Shown here piece by piece: positions 1,236-14,669 of a DNA stretch of 38,281 bases. The stretch is from a virus. The DNA lies in UHGV virus genome UHGV-0173928; one strand, given 5' to 3'. The position numbers and the translations under genes are program-made. How positions within the stretch are numbered: position 1 is the first letter of the stretch; the number at the start of each line of letters is the position of its first letter. The notes beneath the pieces were generated by a model that was not told the origin of the DNA, did not search any database, and saw only the letters and a list, made by a program, of their open reading frames with translations.

Positions 1236-2540
1236 CTATATAAACTTAGATATAATATCGTGAATCTGTTGTAGCGGGATTTCTTCCATCTTACTCTTAA
1301 TAAGAGAGCGGTTAGATGCTGTCAGTGAAGGCCATTTTGTTTTCCAGGCTAGATATGCTCGCCATGAGTAGCCTGTTTCGTAAGGTTTATTCATATAAGT
1401 CATTGAGTGTTCAACCGCATGTATGTATTTTTTCTCAAAGTTGGTTCCTTTTACTTCAAATAAACTACCGAAATAAATAAGCCATTTTGCCAGGTGTTCA
1501 TACTGCTCCCATGCGCCAGACTCTTTAGTAAGATCTATTTTTTTATCTATTATATCACAAAAAACATTTAATACCTTTTCATCATTCCAGCTATATCCAG
1601 ATGATGAAATGGAGGAAATGATATGATAAAAAGAATCCTCTAACTTCAAGAACTCTATTTTATACTCTCTTCCGTTTTTTATTACCGATTTGATTGAGTG
1701 CCTCAATTTGTCTTTTATTTTTTTTGCTTCTGGAATTTTCTTGTTAAGTTTTCTAAAGAAATCAGACACCTCTGTTTTATCTATAACCCTAATCCCAAAG
1801 CAGGAAAAATAGTAATCTTTAATAGGTTGCAATAGTTTCCCTCGGGAAATAAGGAAAATATTGGAGGACATTACGTTGTCCCGTGAAAATACCTTATATT
1901 CATTTATAATCGCCTTGAGGTTCGCGTCACTTAGAGAATAGCCAAGAATAACAATAGTGTTTTCATGTAGAACTGTGCTTAGTTTATTTGAAAAGTAAGA
2001 ATTACCATTTATAAATCTGAAATAATCCTCGCTAGTAACAACCATATCTGATGGGGAGTCTATAGAGCCGTGAACATGGTAGACTTTAACCTCACAATTA
2101 TATTTTGGAATTGGCAGGCCGGGGGTGATTGTACACGTTCGATTCTCTCCAGCCAGTTTTTCTGCTAACTTGTCATAATTTGTCGTAATTACTTTAAATG
2201 TGTTTTCTTTGAAAAAGTCTTGAATATATTCAATTGATGGATCAAGTTCGATTGAGGCTATGATTTTCTCAATCTCCTGGTAAATATTTTTCCCCGAAAG
2301 TATAAATTTTAGTGCAATAACCTGAGCAGCCTCTTCAAGGCTAAGGTCTTTTGCTTTTCCATCAGGAAATAATTCCTCTTTGAGTGAGTCACCATCCTTC
2401 AATAAACCGCACAGTTGCTCCAATAAAGATTGCCAACTTGGGGCTTTATCATCAGAAACAGCCTTTGAAAATCCAGTGCCTGTAAGAAAGCACAGCCTAT
2501 GTGTAGCTGCTGCATAGGCAATTTCTATATACTCGCTCAT
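1236..2540 (-). CDS. SIR2-family (SIR2_2/DUF4020-type) putative NAD+-consuming defense protein with unassigned C-terminal domain
   Basis: N-terminal region carries the Rossmann G-x-G motif (CFLTGTGFS), TTNYD and VYHVHGS motifs and a GYSLSD motif, the hallmark set of defense-type SIR2 domains such as ThsA/DSR; gene is visibly AT-rich relative to its flanks. Confidence 0.8.
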   Translation of the reverse strand: MSEYIEIAYAAATHRLCFLTGTGFSKAVSDDKAPSWQSLLEQLCGLLKDGDSLKEELFPDGKAKDLSLEEAAQVIALKFILSGKNIYQEIEKIIASIELDPSIEYIQDFFKENTFKVITTNYDKLAEKLAGENRTCTITPGLPIPKYNCEVKVYHVHGSIDSPSDMVVTSEDYFRFINGNSYFSNKLSTVLHENTIVILGYSLSDANLKAIINEYKVFSRDNVMSSNIFLISRGKLLQPIKDYYFSCFGIRVIDKTEVSDFFRKLNKKIPEAKKIKDKLRHSIKSVIKNGREYKIEFLKLEDSFYHIISSISSSGYSWNDEKVLNVFCDIIDKKIDLTKESGAWEQYEHLAKWLIYFGSLFEVKGTNFEKKYIHAVEHSMTYMNKPYETGYSWRAYLAWKTKWPSLTASNRSLIKSKMEEIPLQQIHDIISKFI

Positions 2541-2596
2541 TACTTACTCCATTTACTTATAGTTCTACGGAGAAGTATACCCTAATGCATTGACGT

Positions 2597-3238
2597 TTAT
2601 AGATAATTTCCTTTTCCTGTTAATACTCCCTTAGGCACCTGTTTTTGTGCCAGCGTTTGGGTTCCGCGAATTATGTTAATCAGAGGGCTTAGTAACGATG
2701 GTTCCTGGCGTGCCTCAACTTCTCCAGCCATTGCCCTGATGTAGTCTGCGCTGGCAACGTTGTTGTATTCCGTCGCAAAGCAACATAGTAACGTCAGAAC
2801 ATGCTCTGTCGTTATTTCGCTCCAGTTGATGTTGAAAAATTCATCGCCTTTTTTGTCGTGTTCGGAATCGAAGATGCTTTGGTGGAGGATGTATTTGCCG
2901 GATTCCTTGCGCGGTAACTTGATTGCTTTCTGGCGTTCCAGCTCCTTATAAATCTGCATTGCCTCAATTAGTACCGGCCTGCCGTTCATGAAGGGATCGC
3001 GCAACCTTACACGCTGGCCAACTCGACCAGTAATAAAGCTGTTTTCCTCTTCCACCAGCACGATAAAACCCTTTTCCTCTTTTTCTCGCAATTCGCGCAG
3101 CAGCTGGAGTTCCATATCGCGACGGCGTTCAGGGTAGCTGGTCCGCTCAGCCATTATTAGCTCATTGTTGATCCATGCAGCAGTCATTGACGCCGGTTTG
3201 CCGACGCTCATCGAAACAACGCATATTTTCTTATCCAT
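2597..3238 (-). CDS. hypothetical protein at the position of P1 mat (particle maturation); ORF extends to a GTG at 3385
   Basis: ORF 2597-3385; internal ATG (MDKKICVV...) at 3236-3238 is the more plausible start; identity by synteny only. Confidence 0.4.
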   Translation of the reverse strand: MDKKICVVSMSVGKPASMTAAWINNELIMAERTSYPERRRDMELQLLRELREKEEKGFIVLVEEENSFITGRVGQRVRLRDPFMNGRPVLIEAMQIYKELERQKAIKLPRKESGKYILHQSIFDSEHDKKGDEFFNINWSEITTEHVLTLLCCFATEYNNVASADYIRAMAGEVEARQEPSLLSPLINIIRGTQTLAQKQVPKGVLTGKGNYL

Positions 3239-3427
3239 AGCGCCCCCTACAAAAAAGAAAAGCCACCAGCGGCGGCTTAGCAATACAACTGAAGGTAGCG
3301 CCCGGTACTCAGACTGTGCCGTCCATGGAATATTTGAAAAGGGATCCATCCGTACCGGGCATGTGATGATTCTGACTGAAGTCACTTGTCAGTTGTCAAT
3401 TATTTCAGATTAAAAATAATATATTTA

Positions 3428-3988
3428 TTAGTGCATGATGTTTGCCATCTCATAGGCGTCAGCCAGCAACTCCATCTCTGACTTGTTCAGCAAGGTGAAT
3501 TCTTTCTTGCCTCCAACCACACCATCGGCATGAACAGGGACCAGCCAGGGGTATTTTTCTCTTACTTCAGCCGGTGCTGCATGCTGGTGGTGCCATCTAC
3601 AAAGGGGCAATTGCTTTTTGTGACAACCCGGCGCGGTACGACCGGAGATATGGTGCAGAGATACCTCTTCAGATATTACTCCATGCATGTAGCAGGCAAT
3701 GCAGGGGAGAGCGCCAAGAGCATTGGCGATGCTCCGTTCCTCCGCTGTCGATGTTCGCCCCTTCAAGCCACGAGATTTTATCTTTACCGCACTTTTCCGC
3801 GTTTTGCTGGCTGGTGGGCGCTCTTTCTGTTTAGCGATACGGCGGACGATAGAATCCCGCATTTTCTGATATTGCGATTCTCGCCAGGCGGGGTCAGCCA
3901 ACTTTTCCCGTTGCCGAGCGATCGCTCGTTCTCTGGCTGCCTTCTGCCACTCGCGGCGCTGTTCAAGTTTTTGTTCGATTGTTTTCAT
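3428..3988 (-). CDS. ref: Ref, HNH-type recombination enhancement function
   Basis: 186 aa matching my recollection of P1 Ref in length and sequence, with Cys/His-rich HNH-like core (CIACY...CHKK...CRWHH) and basic N-terminus; located beside cre as in P1. Confidence 0.85.
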   Translation of the reverse strand: MKTIEQKLEQRREWQKAARERAIARQREKLADPAWRESQYQKMRDSIVRRIAKQKERPPASKTRKSAVKIKSRGLKGRTSTAEERSIANALGALPCIACYMHGVISEEVSLHHISGRTAPGCHKKQLPLCRWHHQHAAPAEVREKYPWLVPVHADGVVGGKKEFTLLNKSEMELLADAYEMANIMH

Positions 3989-3993
3989 ATGGC

Positions 3994-4021
3994 AAAAAAA
4001 AAAGGCGGCCTAATGGCCGCC
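3994..4021 (-). terminator. intrinsic-terminator-like hairpin plus U-tract immediately upstream of the ref start codon
   Basis: On the minus strand ggcggcc-atta-ggccgcc is followed by ten U; the U-tract ends 6 nt before the ref ATG. Confidence 0.45.
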
Positions 4022-4088
4022 AATGATGTCAAGGAGTTAAGTAATGGCAACGTCTTCGTAGTTGACAAAAACTGCGGCTTAATTATAG

Positions 4089-4105
4089 CAATCAATTAGA
4101 GCAAT
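4089..4105. promoter_or_regulatory. C1-operator-like 17-mer upstream of ref
   Basis: caatcaattagagcaat matches the reverse complement of the P1 C1 operator consensus ATTGCTCTAATAAATTT at 14/17 positions. Confidence 0.5.
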
Positions 4106-4236
4106 GGTAGATATTTTGTTAATCGCGAATCACATTTTTTCACTTCAGTACCTGTGTGCTATACTCCTTCTTGATTGATTGGATGCGGAATACAAACCCG
4201 CTCTTTTGTGCAGCCTGGCTCCTTGCCAGGCTTTTT

Positions 4237-4548
4237 TTATTTCATCATGGAAGCTGTTAACGCTTTGGATCTTGCTGAACTGATTGAAAGGGCATTGTTT
4301 ACCTTACCCAGGAGTTCGCCAAATTCCACCATCACTCTAGTAAGCCCGCGCCGCGCTTCCTCCTCCGTTGCATTCATCACAAAATGTTCAGCACTCCGCA
4401 TGCTTTTAACGGGGAACGCAACAGATATCGAGTCGATATCAGGCATCCTATCGCTCAACTTTACGGTGACAATGACAGATGGTGACTGAATTTGAGAGCT
4501 TACAGACAGCACCACATATTTTCCGTCTATTTTGAAATCCTTCCGCAT
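4237..4548 (-). CDS. hypothetical protein (position of P1 cra, cre-associated)
   Basis: 103-aa ORF between cre and ref; a C1-operator-like site (4565-4581) lies just upstream; identity by position only. Confidence 0.4.
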   Translation of the reverse strand: MRKDFKIDGKYVVLSVSSQIQSPSVIVTVKLSDRMPDIDSISVAFPVKSMRSAEHFVMNATEEEARRGLTRVMVEFGELLGKVNNALSISSARSKALTASMMK

Positions 4549-4598
4549 GCGTCACCATAAATATCAAATAATTAGAGCAATCAAGCGCAAATGAACGG

Positions 4599-5630
4599 CT
4601 AATCGCCATCTTCCAGCAGGCGCACCATTGCCCCCGTTTCACTATCCAGGTTACGGATATAGTTCATGACAATATTTACGTTGGTCCAGCCACCAGCTTG
4701 CATGATCTCCGGTATTGAAACTCCGGCGCGGGCCATATCTCGCGCGGCTCCGACACGGGCACTGTGTCCAGACCAGGCCAGGTATCTCTGACCAGAGTCA
4801 TCCTTAGCGCCGTAAATCAATCGATGAGTTGCTTCAAAAATCCCTTCCAGGGCGCGAGTTGATAGCTGGCTGGTGGCAGATGGCGCGGCAACACCATTTT
4901 TTCTGACACGGCAAAACAAGTAGTTATTCGGATCATCAGCCACACCAGAGACAGAAATCCATCGCTCAACCAGTTTAGTTACCCCCAGGCTAAGTGCCTT
5001 CTCTACACCAGCGGTGCTAACCAGCGTTTTCGTTCTGCCAATATGGATTAACATTCTCCCACCGTCAGTACGTGAGATATCTTTAACCCTGATCCTGGCA
5101 ATTTCTGCTATACGTAGCAGGGTATTATAAGCAATCCCAAGAAATGCCAGATTACGTATATCCTGGCAGCGATCGCTATTTTCCATGAGTGAACGAACCT
5201 GGTCGAAATCAGTGCGTTCGAACGCCAGTGCCTGTTTTGCACGTTCACCGGCATCAACGTTTTCTTTTCGGATCCGTCGCATGACCAGTGAAACAGCATT
5301 ACTGTCACTTGGTCGTGGCAGCCCGGACCGACGATGAAGCATGTTTAGCTGGCCCAAATGTTGCTGGATAGTTTTTACTGCCAGACCGCGCGCCTGAAGA
5401 TATAGAAGATAATCGCGAACATCTTCAGGTTCTGCGGGAAACCATTTCCGGTTATTCAACTTGCACCATGCCGCCCACGATCGGCAAACGGACAGAAGCA
5501 TTTTCCAGGTATGCTCAGAAAACGCCTGGCGATCCCTGAACATGTCCATCAGGTTCTTGCGAACCTCATCACTCGTTGCATCGACCGGTAATGCAGGCAA
5601 ATTTTGGTGTACGGTCAGTAAATTGGACAT
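4599..5630 (-). CDS. cre: Cre site-specific tyrosine recombinase
   Basis: 343-aa protein recognisable as P1 Cre (MSNLLTVHQNLPALPVDATSDEVRKNLMDMFRDRQAFSEHTWKMLLSVCRSWAAWCKLNNRKWFPAEPEDVRDYL...), with loxP about 420 bp upstream. Confidence 0.98.
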   Translation of the reverse strand: MSNLLTVHQNLPALPVDATSDEVRKNLMDMFRDRQAFSEHTWKMLLSVCRSWAAWCKLNNRKWFPAEPEDVRDYLLYLQARGLAVKTIQQHLGQLNMLHRRSGLPRPSDSNAVSLVMRRIRKENVDAGERAKQALAFERTDFDQVRSLMENSDRCQDIRNLAFLGIAYNTLLRIAEIARIRVKDISRTDGGRMLIHIGRTKTLVSTAGVEKALSLGVTKLVERWISVSGVADDPNNYLFCRVRKNGVAAPSATSQLSTRALEGIFEATHRLIYGAKDDSGQRYLAWSGHSARVGAARDMARAGVSIPEIMQAGGWTNVNIVMNYIRNLDSETGAMVRLLEDGD

Positions 5631-5978: not shown

Positions 5979-6049
5979 CTATTTGACCTGATAAGGCATT
6001 GAACTGTATGGATTTACAGGTAAATTGATCATGTTCAATAACCCTTAAG

Positions 6050-12894: not shown

Positions 12895-13284
12895 TTAAAT
12901 AACCGGACAATCATCAAATTCCCCACTTCGGGCATCATTGATGACATGAGTGATCACACCAAAAACAGCATTACTGCCCGTGTATCCATCGTCATCTACT
13001 GGTAACGCCTCTTTCTTCCCGGTGCTTAAATCCTCCAGGTGCTGGCGCGGATACTTCCTGTATCTCTTTATGCGATATTCACCCTCCATAGCGCACACAA
13101 GCAGAGAACCATCAACCGGAATAAGCGAGGAATCAACCACCAGCAAAGCACCCTGCAATATTCCCTCACGGTGATGGCTATCAGCTGCCCGCATGAAGTA
13201 GGTTGCTGATGGATGCCTGATTAGTTGCTGATCAAGAGAAATTCGGCTTTCAACATAATCCGCCGCAGGAGAAGGGAAGCCCAT
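12895..13284 (-). CDS. humD: HumD, UmuD'-like translesion synthesis accessory protein
   Basis: 129-aa S24/LexA-C-terminal-like protein; LexA box 20-40 bp upstream of its ATG. Confidence 0.85.
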   Translation of the reverse strand: MGFPSPAADYVESRISLDQQLIRHPSATYFMRAADSHHREGILQGALLVVDSSLIPVDGSLLVCAMEGEYRIKRYRKYPRQHLEDLSTGKKEALPVDDDGYTGSNAVFGVITHVINDARSGEFDDCPVI

Positions 13285-13303
13285 AGCGTTTTCACCTCAA
13301 TAA

Positions 13304-13323
13304 TACTGTTCATTTATACAGTA
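13304..13323. promoter_or_regulatory. LexA (SOS) box shared by divergent humD and the 13459 operon
   Basis: TACTGTTCATTTATACAGTA fits CTGT-N8-ACAG with flanking TA, located in the humD / 13459-gene divergent intergenic region. Confidence 0.75.
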
Positions 13324-13458
13324 TACATTAAAGAGACACCTTTGGTGCAAACGCGTTACGTACATCAACCACCGCTGATGATTTTGTGCTCTTTGCTACT
13401 ATTCATCACCAACGGATCAGCGTAACCTCGTTGCCAATCAGTTAATAAGGAATTAGCT

Positions 13459-14043
13459 ATGCCTAATCGCATTCCTCTCGATCCTGTATTGCCCAAAAAT
13501 TTTGACTGCACTCCTAACGAGAAACGCTCTAAAGCTCAGCTGGACGCCTGGTGGGACCATCCATATGGGGTTACACAACCTGACGGGAAAATTGTAGTTT
13601 ATTGTCTGAATGGTGGGGCGTGGGACCGTCCATCCGTGCTTTGTTTGGCAGATAACTATGATGAAGCCTGTGAACTTGCCGAAAGACAGCAGGCAAGCTG
13701 GGTAAAAACACGGTCTGAACCGACATTCATGTTTTCAAAAGAACCGCCATTTATACTGGCGAGGATGCCGCAGCGACCGGATCATCAACAAGAAATTGTT
13801 GCTGAATTTTCCTCTAGGGATGAGATGAATCTCTTCTCATTAAAGCAGGAAGAAAGGGATCGCGTCGAAGTGTCTCCAACTCTCGACCACAACCGGATGA
13901 ACCTGGCCCAACTCGCCTGGTACAGCAAAGAATTAGAGATGTCTATTGCCCGACTTGAAAACGAAAAAGCCGCTATCCAAGCCCAGCATGAAGTAGTTCT
14001 GAACCGGATTAGAGAAATGCAAAACGATAACAGGGGATTTTGA
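13459..14043 (+). CDS. hypothetical protein, likely LexA-regulated (possibly P1 lxr-like), coiled-coil C-terminus
   Basis: 194-aa ORF with ATG and AGGA-type RBS, divergent from humD across the LexA box; no catalytic motif recognised. Confidence 0.6.
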   Translation: MPNRIPLDPVLPKNFDCTPNEKRSKAQLDAWWDHPYGVTQPDGKIVVYCLNGGAWDRPSVLCLADNYDEACELAERQQASWVKTRSEPTFMFSKEPPFILARMPQRPDHQQEIVAEFSSRDEMNLFSLKQEERDRVEVSPTLDHNRMNLAQLAWYSKELEMSIARLENEKAAIQAQHEVVLNRIREMQNDNRGF

Positions 14044-14406
14044 ATGGCTAAAATCGAGTACCATCGCGATCGCGGTAATTACCTGGAAATATACGATCAT
14101 GAATCTCTTAACGATATCAACGATGCGTTATATGAATACTGTGAAAAAACGAGCATCACAGATGCACCTGATGCATTTGTCGAGCTACCGGTATATCTCC
14201 GCGACATCTATGCAATACGAACACCGCCCGTATCGGTGATCCACATTGGCTATGTCCGCCTGTCCATCGAAGAAGATGAAGATCGTTATATCGTGCGCCA
14301 CTATACATTGGACAGAAAAGAGCTTCCCAATGAATGGAACATGAGTAATTTCTACAACGGTGAATATGGCTTAAAACCCGCTAAGAATGGCGCGGGCATT
14401 GCGTAA
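14044..14406 (+). CDS. hypothetical acidic protein, second gene of the LexA-box cassette
   Basis: 120-aa ORF whose ATG overlaps the upstream stop (TGAATG coupling); no motif recognised. Confidence 0.55.
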   Translation: MAKIEYHRDRGNYLEIYDHESLNDINDALYEYCEKTSITDAPDAFVELPVYLRDIYAIRTPPVSVIHIGYVRLSIEEDEDRYIVRHYTLDRKELPNEWNMSNFYNGEYGLKPAKNGAGIA

Positions 14407-14417
14407 TAGCCTAACAA

Positions 14418-14669
14418 CTATTCTGTTTTCTGATATGCCGGATCGTTCCCTTTTGGCAACTGGAGGCTTAACTGCCGATAGTGCCGTAACCGTTCCATGA
14501 AATAGGTGCGCAGCTTCTCTGGTTGCTCGCGGGCTACCTGTTCAGCTATGACAGGTATGTTCAATCGCTCTTTGTACGCCACACCGCTGGCAGCCAGATC
14601 AACGTTAACCTTATCCCGTTCTTCCTGACTTTTAGCTGCAATATTCCAATCGTGCATATCAAATCCCAT
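14418..14669 (-). CDS. hot: Hot, homolog of DNA polymerase III theta subunit (HolE)
   Basis: 83-aa protein with ...[43 protein letters not shown]..., clearly similar to E. coli theta. Confidence 0.85.

Follow-up and report, generated by a model that had tools for sequence, protein, structure and literature searches.

Association of a LexA box with humD, and facultative pairing of lxr and upf93.6, in P1/P7-type phage-plasmids

The viral genome UHGV-0173928, a stretch of 38,281 nucleotides that is called the window below, is of the P1/P7 phage-plasmid type, and at positions 13304-14406 it carries a LexA (SOS) box followed by two rightward genes, lxr and upf93.6, that diverge from humD. Our reading of this region, to which we give a probability of about 0.65, is that lxr-upf93.6 is an accessory operon of the phage-plasmid, that the box is most likely the operator of humD, and that Lxr may act by binding a partner. 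The first-pass annotation, made from the sequence alone, had recognised the box and the two genes and had proposed a DNA-damage-induced two-component module, possibly of a toxin and a regulator. The feature is real and is known as an annotation, and the toxin/regulator proposal is not supported. The box, lxr and upf93.6 are all annotated already in the P1 and P7 records, so that as a genomic feature nothing here is new; what is new is that the box is associated with humD, that the two genes are paired facultatively, and that the family of the Lxr domain is broad.

The near-consensus SOS box (TACTGTTCATTTATACAGTA, 13304-13323) is indeed present between the leftward humD and the rightward gene pair, and it differs from the consensus TACTGTATATATATACAGTA at three positions, all of them within the AT spacer. 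The 38-kb window has no second match of this kind, 0.00 being expected (100 shuffles), and the score of the box, 23.3 bits, falls within the 16-29.5 bits spanned by the training set of a weight matrix made from E. coli SOS boxes. The start codon of humD is 20 nt away from the box and that of lxr 135 nt away. A CTGT-N8-ACAG box is thus found in the region upstream of lxr-upf93.6, as expected for a member of the SOS regulon; retention of the box with the gene across related elements, which would equally be expected, was not observed.

A comparison covered 73 loci with an Lxr homologue, either full-length or short, and at least 300 bp of upstream sequence, and recorded for each the presence of a LexA box, of humD, of upf93.6 and of hot. 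It rendered a box in all 56 loci with humD, always at about -135 from lxr, and in one of the 17 loci lacking humD. No box was found upstream of the Lxr-domain genes of SSU5-like phage-plasmids, Pseudomonas plasmids, IncHI-type plasmids and one Enterobacter plasmid, and the sole box of a Citrobacter plasmid bearing an Lxr-domain gene precedes umuD. Conversely, RCS47 and D6 carry humD with a box 19-20 nt upstream, yet have no lxr. Other LexA-controlled genes of the umuD type on mobile elements (humD of P1, RCS47 and D6, as well as plasmid umuDC) likewise show a consensus box ca. 20-40 nt before the start codon of the S24-family gene; this likeness is that of humD, whereas the two-gene cassette only shares the intergenic region. 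Judged from these comparisons, the box goes with the S24-family gene humD, in a pattern that is consistent despite the small number of lineages.

The promoter scans provide weak evidence that agrees with the box belonging to humD. On the minus strand, a consensus scan predicted a humD promoter (13320-13350) composed of a -35 hexamer TTGCAC (13345-13350), a 19-nt spacer and a -10 hexamer TATACT (13320-13325) that overlaps the edge of the box; a better version of this layout, TTCACA-18-TATACT, can be read by eye in RCS47. The box is most likely the operator of humD: it lies 20 nt from the humD start codon, overlaps the best humD -10 candidate and travels with humD through evolution. On the plus strand, the same kind of scan gave two candidates for lxr. 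The one that overlaps the box (TTCACC-18-TATACA, 13291-13320) is weak, lacks the T at position 6 of the -10 and is absent from a stricter scan. The other (CTGATG-16-TACTAT, 13375-13402), in which a preceding TGc makes an extended -10 (13394-13402), is the top-scoring plus-strand candidate and lies ca. 75 bp downstream of the box; in the commonest lxr allele (L021) its -35 reads CAGATG and the TGcTACTAT is retained. Rightward transcription of lxr would start at a promoter within the 174 bp that separate it from humD. Were this the weak promoter overlapping the box, lxr would be co-repressed by LexA; were it the extended -10 promoter, lxr would be independent of LexA. In our view lxr more probably has a promoter of its own, any SOS control being partial or shared at most, and the two genes would then form a bicistronic accessory transcript. 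A search for an RNA element in the lxr leader gave no Rfam match and a fold z-score of -1.0.

SOS control of lxr is thus possible, as something that we infer rather than observe, since across loci the box follows humD and not lxr, and DNA-damage induction of the lxr-upf93.6 pair, as initially proposed, has the same standing. The P1 record names the lxr product 'LexA regulated function', which is, as far as the literature found goes, a prediction from position. The present results correct this label, which reflects proximity alone, in that the comparison across elements attributes the box to humD. A literature search that did not reach Lobocka 2004 and McLenigan 1999 turned up no work on the function or expression of either lxr or upf93.6; lxr has been reported to be non-essential in P1 in a CRISPR interference (CRISPRi) screen (PMC10695390).

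The identity of the two genes follows from the annotation of the P7 and P1 records. In a megablast search, the identity of this stretch is 98-99% with P7, with Salmonella phage SJ46 and with several records named 'P1', and 97.8%, in two pieces, with reference P1. The P7 record (AF503408) lists humD, a 'protein_bind LexA: regulation of humD expression', upf94.2 (194 amino acids) and upf93.6 (118 amino acids), and the P1 record (NC_005856; annotation of Lobocka et al. 2004) lists humD, a 'LexA binding site in the regulatory region of lxr and humD', and lxr (190 amino acids), followed directly by hot. The first open reading frame (ORF) of the pair (13459-14043, plus strand, 194 amino acids) matches phrog_6164 over residues 1-194 (E=1.4e-135), is 94% identical to the P1 gene by tblastn and is flanked by humD, from which it diverges, and by hot. 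The second (14044-14406, plus strand, 120 amino acids) matches phrog_5797 (E=1e-76), is 97-98% identical to the P7 and SJ46 genes and comes directly after lxr, with a 4-nt gap by tblastn. By homology, synteny and annotation, the first ORF is lxr (gp102 of P1, upf94.2 of P7) and the second is upf93.6 of P7, which is missing from reference P1. The question left open initially, whether both ORFs correspond to P1 lxr, is thereby answered: the first one does and the second does not.

The resemblance to P1 comprises the position between humD and hot, an identical LexA box at the same distance (-135) and 94% protein identity over 189 amino acids; the difference lies in the last ca. 14 codons of lxr and in the extra ca. 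370 bp with upf93.6 that the window has between lxr and hot. With upf94.2-upf93.6 of P7 and J46_0083/0084 of SJ46 the window shares both genes and the way they are joined, and from humD through the box and lxr into most of upf93.6 the nucleotide identity is 98.4-99.1%. It differs from them at the 3' end of upf93.6 (118 amino acids there) and in that hot is absent at this place in those elements, IS903 lying downstream in P7. In the alignment, a block of ca. 400 bp made up of the last ca. 14 lxr codons plus upf93.6 is present in the window and in P7, and absent both from P1 and from the commonest allele; after this block the window, unlike P7, rejoins hot, an arrangement also seen in seven IMG/VR contigs. 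Of 5426 complete E. coli genomes, 101 have the whole cassette, and the replicons that carry it mostly measure 90-115 kb.

The pairing of lxr with upf93.6 is facultative, as far as the comparison of loci can tell, and upf93.6 is not an obligate partner of lxr. It directly follows a full-length lxr, at a gap of 4-22 nt, in 40 of the 73 loci, including lineages in which Lxr is 64-70% and Upf93.6 is 53-58% identical to the window proteins, and it is missing from the other 33. It can be missing where the backbone is otherwise identical: in reference P1 and in the commonest allele, hot comes directly after lxr; two further loci, one lacking upf93.6 (L023) and one having it (L027), share a common backbone; and among the loci examined upf93.6 was never found after the short Lxr-domain proteins. 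It also occurs without lxr, as on Salmonella plasmids, where its relatives come after a pair of genes for 81- and 320-amino-acid proteins near ccdAB; no similarity was detected between Lxr and the 320-amino-acid protein. The two genes are thus not a fixed module. Distant homologues of upf93.6 (39-45% identity) were also observed without lxr in Yersinia, beside Mrr_cat and PLDc_2 nuclease genes (L147 2463-4570), and on a Rep3 plasmid of Rahnella, where parA and a gene for a 94-amino-acid protein immediately precede the homologue (L149 2427-3839).

Lxr contains an N-terminal alpha/beta domain of ca. 130 amino acids (codons 1-133, 13459-13857, by alignment of homologues) that is strongly conserved and very widespread, occurring on conjugative elements as well as on plasmids and phage-plasmids of alpha-, beta- and gamma-proteobacteria. 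In an alignment of 35 sequences from Enterobacteriaceae, Pseudomonas, Xanthomonas, Burkholderia and Bradyrhizobium, 28 columns are invariant and the core motif reads WWD.P...DG...VRCL.GGAWDR. An exhaustive profile search (E<=1e-3) assigned 473 clusters at 50% identity to the family, and tblastn found the domain on 897 PLSDB plasmids, mostly of Klebsiella, E. coli and Citrobacter, 564 of which are typed as conjugative. In the genomes of alpha-, beta- and gamma-proteobacteria, 52 loci with the domain were found, often beside genes for a VirD4/TraG coupling protein and an SNase-type nuclease, which in alpha-proteobacterial genomes often come before it. The domain is acidic, as judged from net charge only, with an isoelectric point (pI) of 5.0 in the window, a median of 4.98 in 102 members and 93% of them below pI 6. 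Many alpha- and beta-proteobacterial members (P0138-P0171) carry, in place of the C-terminal helix described below, an N-terminal module of ca. 55 amino acids (LKRxAK...H..ALE..A...GY.SWHEL) with weak matches to PaaA2 ('stability determinant') or Glyoxalase_8, which the window protein does not have, and some members are 300-400 amino acids long, with uncharacterised extensions. In four Klebsiella contigs (L004-L007, 6498-7763), which to judge by the genes around it are probably SSU5-type phage-plasmids, a HEPN_Toprim_N/HEPN_RiboL-PSP gene comes after the Lxr-domain gene, and before the latter lies a divergent block that encodes a gp32-like single-stranded-DNA-binding protein (SSB), a 5'-3' exonuclease and RecA.

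An AlphaFold2 model of Lxr built with 35 homologues reached a predicted local distance difference test (pLDDT) score of 86. In this prediction an N-terminal segment that is extended and very well conserved (IPLDPxLPxxFDxTPNExRS) leads into a pair of beta-beta-beta-alpha units (residues 33-131) and a 43-residue C-terminal helix (residues 149-191, encoded at 13903-14031), a putative coiled coil that is found only in the enterobacterial forms of ca. 190 amino acids. The product of upf93.6 is acidic (pI 4.8) and beta-rich, and its low-confidence model (pLDDT 66) gave no informative fold match. That neither protein shows a recognisable motif had been noted at the outset, and this was borne out: searches of both against Pfam, PHROGs, NCBIfam, PADLOC and the sequences of the PDB rendered only PHROGs of unknown function; Pfam matched none of the 35 Lxr-family members; PDB profile searches with 35 and with 60 family sequences gave no match; and the best Foldseek hit of the Lxr model in the PDB had an E-value of 0.3, so that structure prediction, which had been recommended for both proteins, led to no significant fold match. 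The Lxr N-domain stands out as a lead among the more widespread and strongly conserved unnamed domains of proteobacterial plasmids. It is a reasonable target for screens of plasmid and phage accessory genes, because it is widespread, conserved, non-essential for P1 growth and without a fold or family assignment.

Putting these observations together, Lxr would be a non-essential, acidic protein of two parts, in which the C-terminal helix would probably dimerise the protein and the N-domain would bind a conserved partner of the host or the plasmid. A protein would be a likelier partner than DNA, on account of the acidity of the N-domain and of its conserved Trp/Asp/Arg patches, and the role of Lxr would be in the establishment or maintenance of the extrachromosomal element. 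Upf93.6 would be a small, acidic, beta-rich facultative passenger, inserted after lxr in some lineages and probably translated following it.

Several observations weigh against this reading. A diverged P1-like contig that has no humD (L026) holds a perfect LexA box between lxr and a divergent, unrelated gene for an 84-amino-acid protein, which is what would be expected if lxr itself benefits from SOS control. The loci of the contingency table are mostly near-identical P1-type elements, and the dominance of close relatives in the sample means that the table represents about 10 independent lineages, not 73. The recurrence of upf93.6 directly after lxr in three to four diverged lineages suggests that there may be some functional tie between them. 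Finally, the NCBI name for Lxr is 'DNA-binding protein', and in the AlphaFold2 model its two beta3-alpha units faintly resemble DNA-binding domains of the AP2/integrase type.

These last two points also argue for one of the rival explanations, among which we rank a counter-defence or host-targeting function and a DNA-binding regulator about equally, above a modulator of translesion synthesis and, below that, an SOS-induced toxin/regulator pair. Lxr could serve plasmid maintenance as a regulator or accessory factor that binds DNA, its modelled beta3-alpha units contacting DNA in the manner of AP2 domains or integrase arms and its coiled coil dimerising it. Besides the NCBI label and the repeated beta-beta-beta-alpha topology, this is favoured by a Foldseek match to the GCC-box domain of AtERF1 (1gcc; probability 0.33, TM-score by target length 0.55), by an hhalign alignment of the second half with AP2 sequences (52% probability, in register, with another hhalign value of 3%, and below significance) and by Pseudomonas plasmids in which the Lxr-domain gene is in an operon with a resolvase. 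However, none of the 35 members matches Pfam AP2 or Arm-DNA-bind, and the acidity of the domain (median pI 5.0) is unusual for a DNA binder, no basic surface being indicated on a test of net charge only; we regard a DNA-binding Lxr as unlikely. It can also be the case, with no greater likelihood, that Lxr and perhaps Upf93.6 are small acidic host-targeting proteins for establishment or counter-defence which, by analogy with the Ard and Psi proteins of plasmid leading regions, would bind a conserved host protein. Both proteins are acidic; mobile replicons alone carry the Lxr domain, which has changed extremely little even between distant hosts; among the genes near it are ArdC-like, T4 coupling protein, nuclease and HEPN/Toprim genes; relatives of upf93.6 adjoin the Mrr-type and PLD-type nuclease genes in Yersinia mentioned above; and lxr is located in a variable, low-GC region of P1-like elements (PMC9603915, PMC6906374). 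Against this, the case is one of context throughout, no match to known anti-defence families was found, and the neighbourhoods are heterogeneous and consist mostly of hypothetical genes.

It is improbable that Lxr modulates translesion synthesis or replication together with HumD (a homologue of UmuD') and Hot (a homologue of the theta subunit), with lxr and humD co-induced from a shared LexA box. The location of lxr between humD and hot in P1 fits this idea, as do four sphingomonad contigs in which the Lxr-domain gene is convergent with umuD-umuC (Peptidase_S24, then IMS/IMS_C/DUF4113; L049-L052, ca. 2430-4950), the Citrobacter plasmid, where umuDC is 5.7 kb from the Lxr homologue, and the SSU5-like phage-plasmids, where a DnaE-like polymerase is encoded near the domain in addition to RecA, SSB and exonuclease. 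However, umuDC is nearby in only two lineages among 70 non-P1 loci, a frequency at which its linkage to Lxr as a general rule was rejected; some P1-like elements have lxr but neither humD nor hot; and humD and hot are present elsewhere without lxr. Still less probable is the proposal from which the analysis started, a toxin-antitoxin or toxin/regulator module that cleavage of LexA would turn on. As a couple of small neighbouring genes of the same direction on a plasmid prophage, joined by a TGA-ATG junction, the two do resemble a type II toxin-antitoxin pair such as the neighbouring phd-doc addiction module; the upstream region contains a strong LexA box; and upf93.6 recurs right after lxr in diverged lineages. 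The resemblance ends there, since lxr and upf93.6 do not co-occur obligately, the Lxr domain being found alone on hundreds of plasmids and upf93.6 also without lxr, since Pfam, NCBIfam and PADLOC hold no model of a toxin, an antitoxin or a defence protein that either product matches, nor was such a domain matched among PDB sequences, and since the box tracks humD instead of lxr. The lack of a phenotype upon knock-down of lxr in P1 (PMC10695390) points the same way, although weakly, P1 having no upf93.6. An obligate two-component system, for instance a toxin-antitoxin pair, can be ruled out, because the genes are separable and neither product matches a toxin, antitoxin or defence family.

A more far-reaching reading, in which the Lxr N-domain defines a large undescribed protein family of plasmids and phage-plasmids that acts on a universally conserved host process, with Lxr wired to the SOS response in P1-type elements through the shared humD operator and Upf93.6 as a lineage-specific co-factor, is doubtful, and falls between the two pairs of rivals in our estimation. 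In such a setting Lxr may be, for example, a modulator of RecA, of translesion synthesis or of replication, or a counter-defence factor.

As regards the layout of the region, cre, cra, coi and c1 are located at 4.6-7.6 kb of the window and pdcB, doc, phd, humD and hot at 11-14.7 kb. The humD gene (12895-13284, minus strand, 129 amino acids) encodes a UmuD'-like protein with a Peptidase_S24 match (E=2.4e-8) and bears this name in P1, P7 and SJ46; hot (14418-14669, minus strand), which is annotated in P1, encodes a homologue of the DNA polymerase III theta subunit (PF06440, E=3.5e-34). The coordinates and strands given initially for the two rightward genes were confirmed, lxr and upf93.6 being the sole plus-strand genes within a long minus-strand run, with humD, phd and doc on one side and hot on the other, and upf93.6 and hot are convergent, with 11 nt between their stop codons. 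Both ORFs are real genes, since homologues at 54-81% identity keep the same length. A Shine-Dalgarno sequence AAGGA (13446-13450) precedes lxr. The lxr stop codon TGA (14041-14043) abuts the upf93.6 ATG at 14044, the two codons being adjacent and not overlapping, and translational coupling, which had been claimed outright for the pair, is plausible on the basis of a Shine-Dalgarno sequence GGGGA (14034-14038) 5 nt before the second start.

Some further features of LexA boxes and their surroundings were observed. A second LexA-type box (AACTGTATGGATTTACAGGT, 16.9 bits) is found at 6002-6021 of the window, between cra and the lox/coi side, where it adjoins lox and is ca. 140 bp upstream of cra. 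Its position agrees with that of the LexA site annotated at the P2coi promoter of P1 (P1 46-65), which is thought to tie the SOS response to Coi and lytic induction (PMC4713147). Around the box upstream of humD, an 11-nt inverted repeat (GCGTTTTCACC / GGTGCAAACGC, 91% complementary, 13286-13296 and 13344-13354) flanks the box with its centre displaced from that of the box, and may represent either chance or a second operator. In the diverged contig L026, the single locus at which lxr has a box but no humD, a 40-bp perfect palindrome, CTCAAACACATACTGTATACATATACAGTATGTGTTTGAG, which contains the consensus LexA box, is situated beside the lxr-upf93.6 pair (3283-3322).

A 32-nt stretch within lxr (13701-13732; also at 2502-2533 of L150) matches exactly a spacer of type I-E CRISPR, GGTAAAAACACGGTCTGAACCGACATTCATGT. 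In the one chromosome read (NZ_CP031833.1) this spacer is the second from the iap (trailer) end of an array located between cysH and iap, and ca. 1000 chromosomal places among the 5426 complete E. coli genomes match it, every sampled one lying within an annotated CRISPR. The protospacer-adjacent motif (PAM) position reads CTG in the window, as it does in all 36 perfect-match protospacers among the lxr loci fetched, and the 23 lxr alleles with the consensus PAM ATG have two to five mismatches to the spacer. This split between PAM and mismatches looks like an escape pattern among lineages that are not independent. Lastly, in a P1-like metagenomic contig (L022), a Tad2-like gene (PF11195) and a dUTPase gene (68-745) lie just beyond pdcA, doc and phd.

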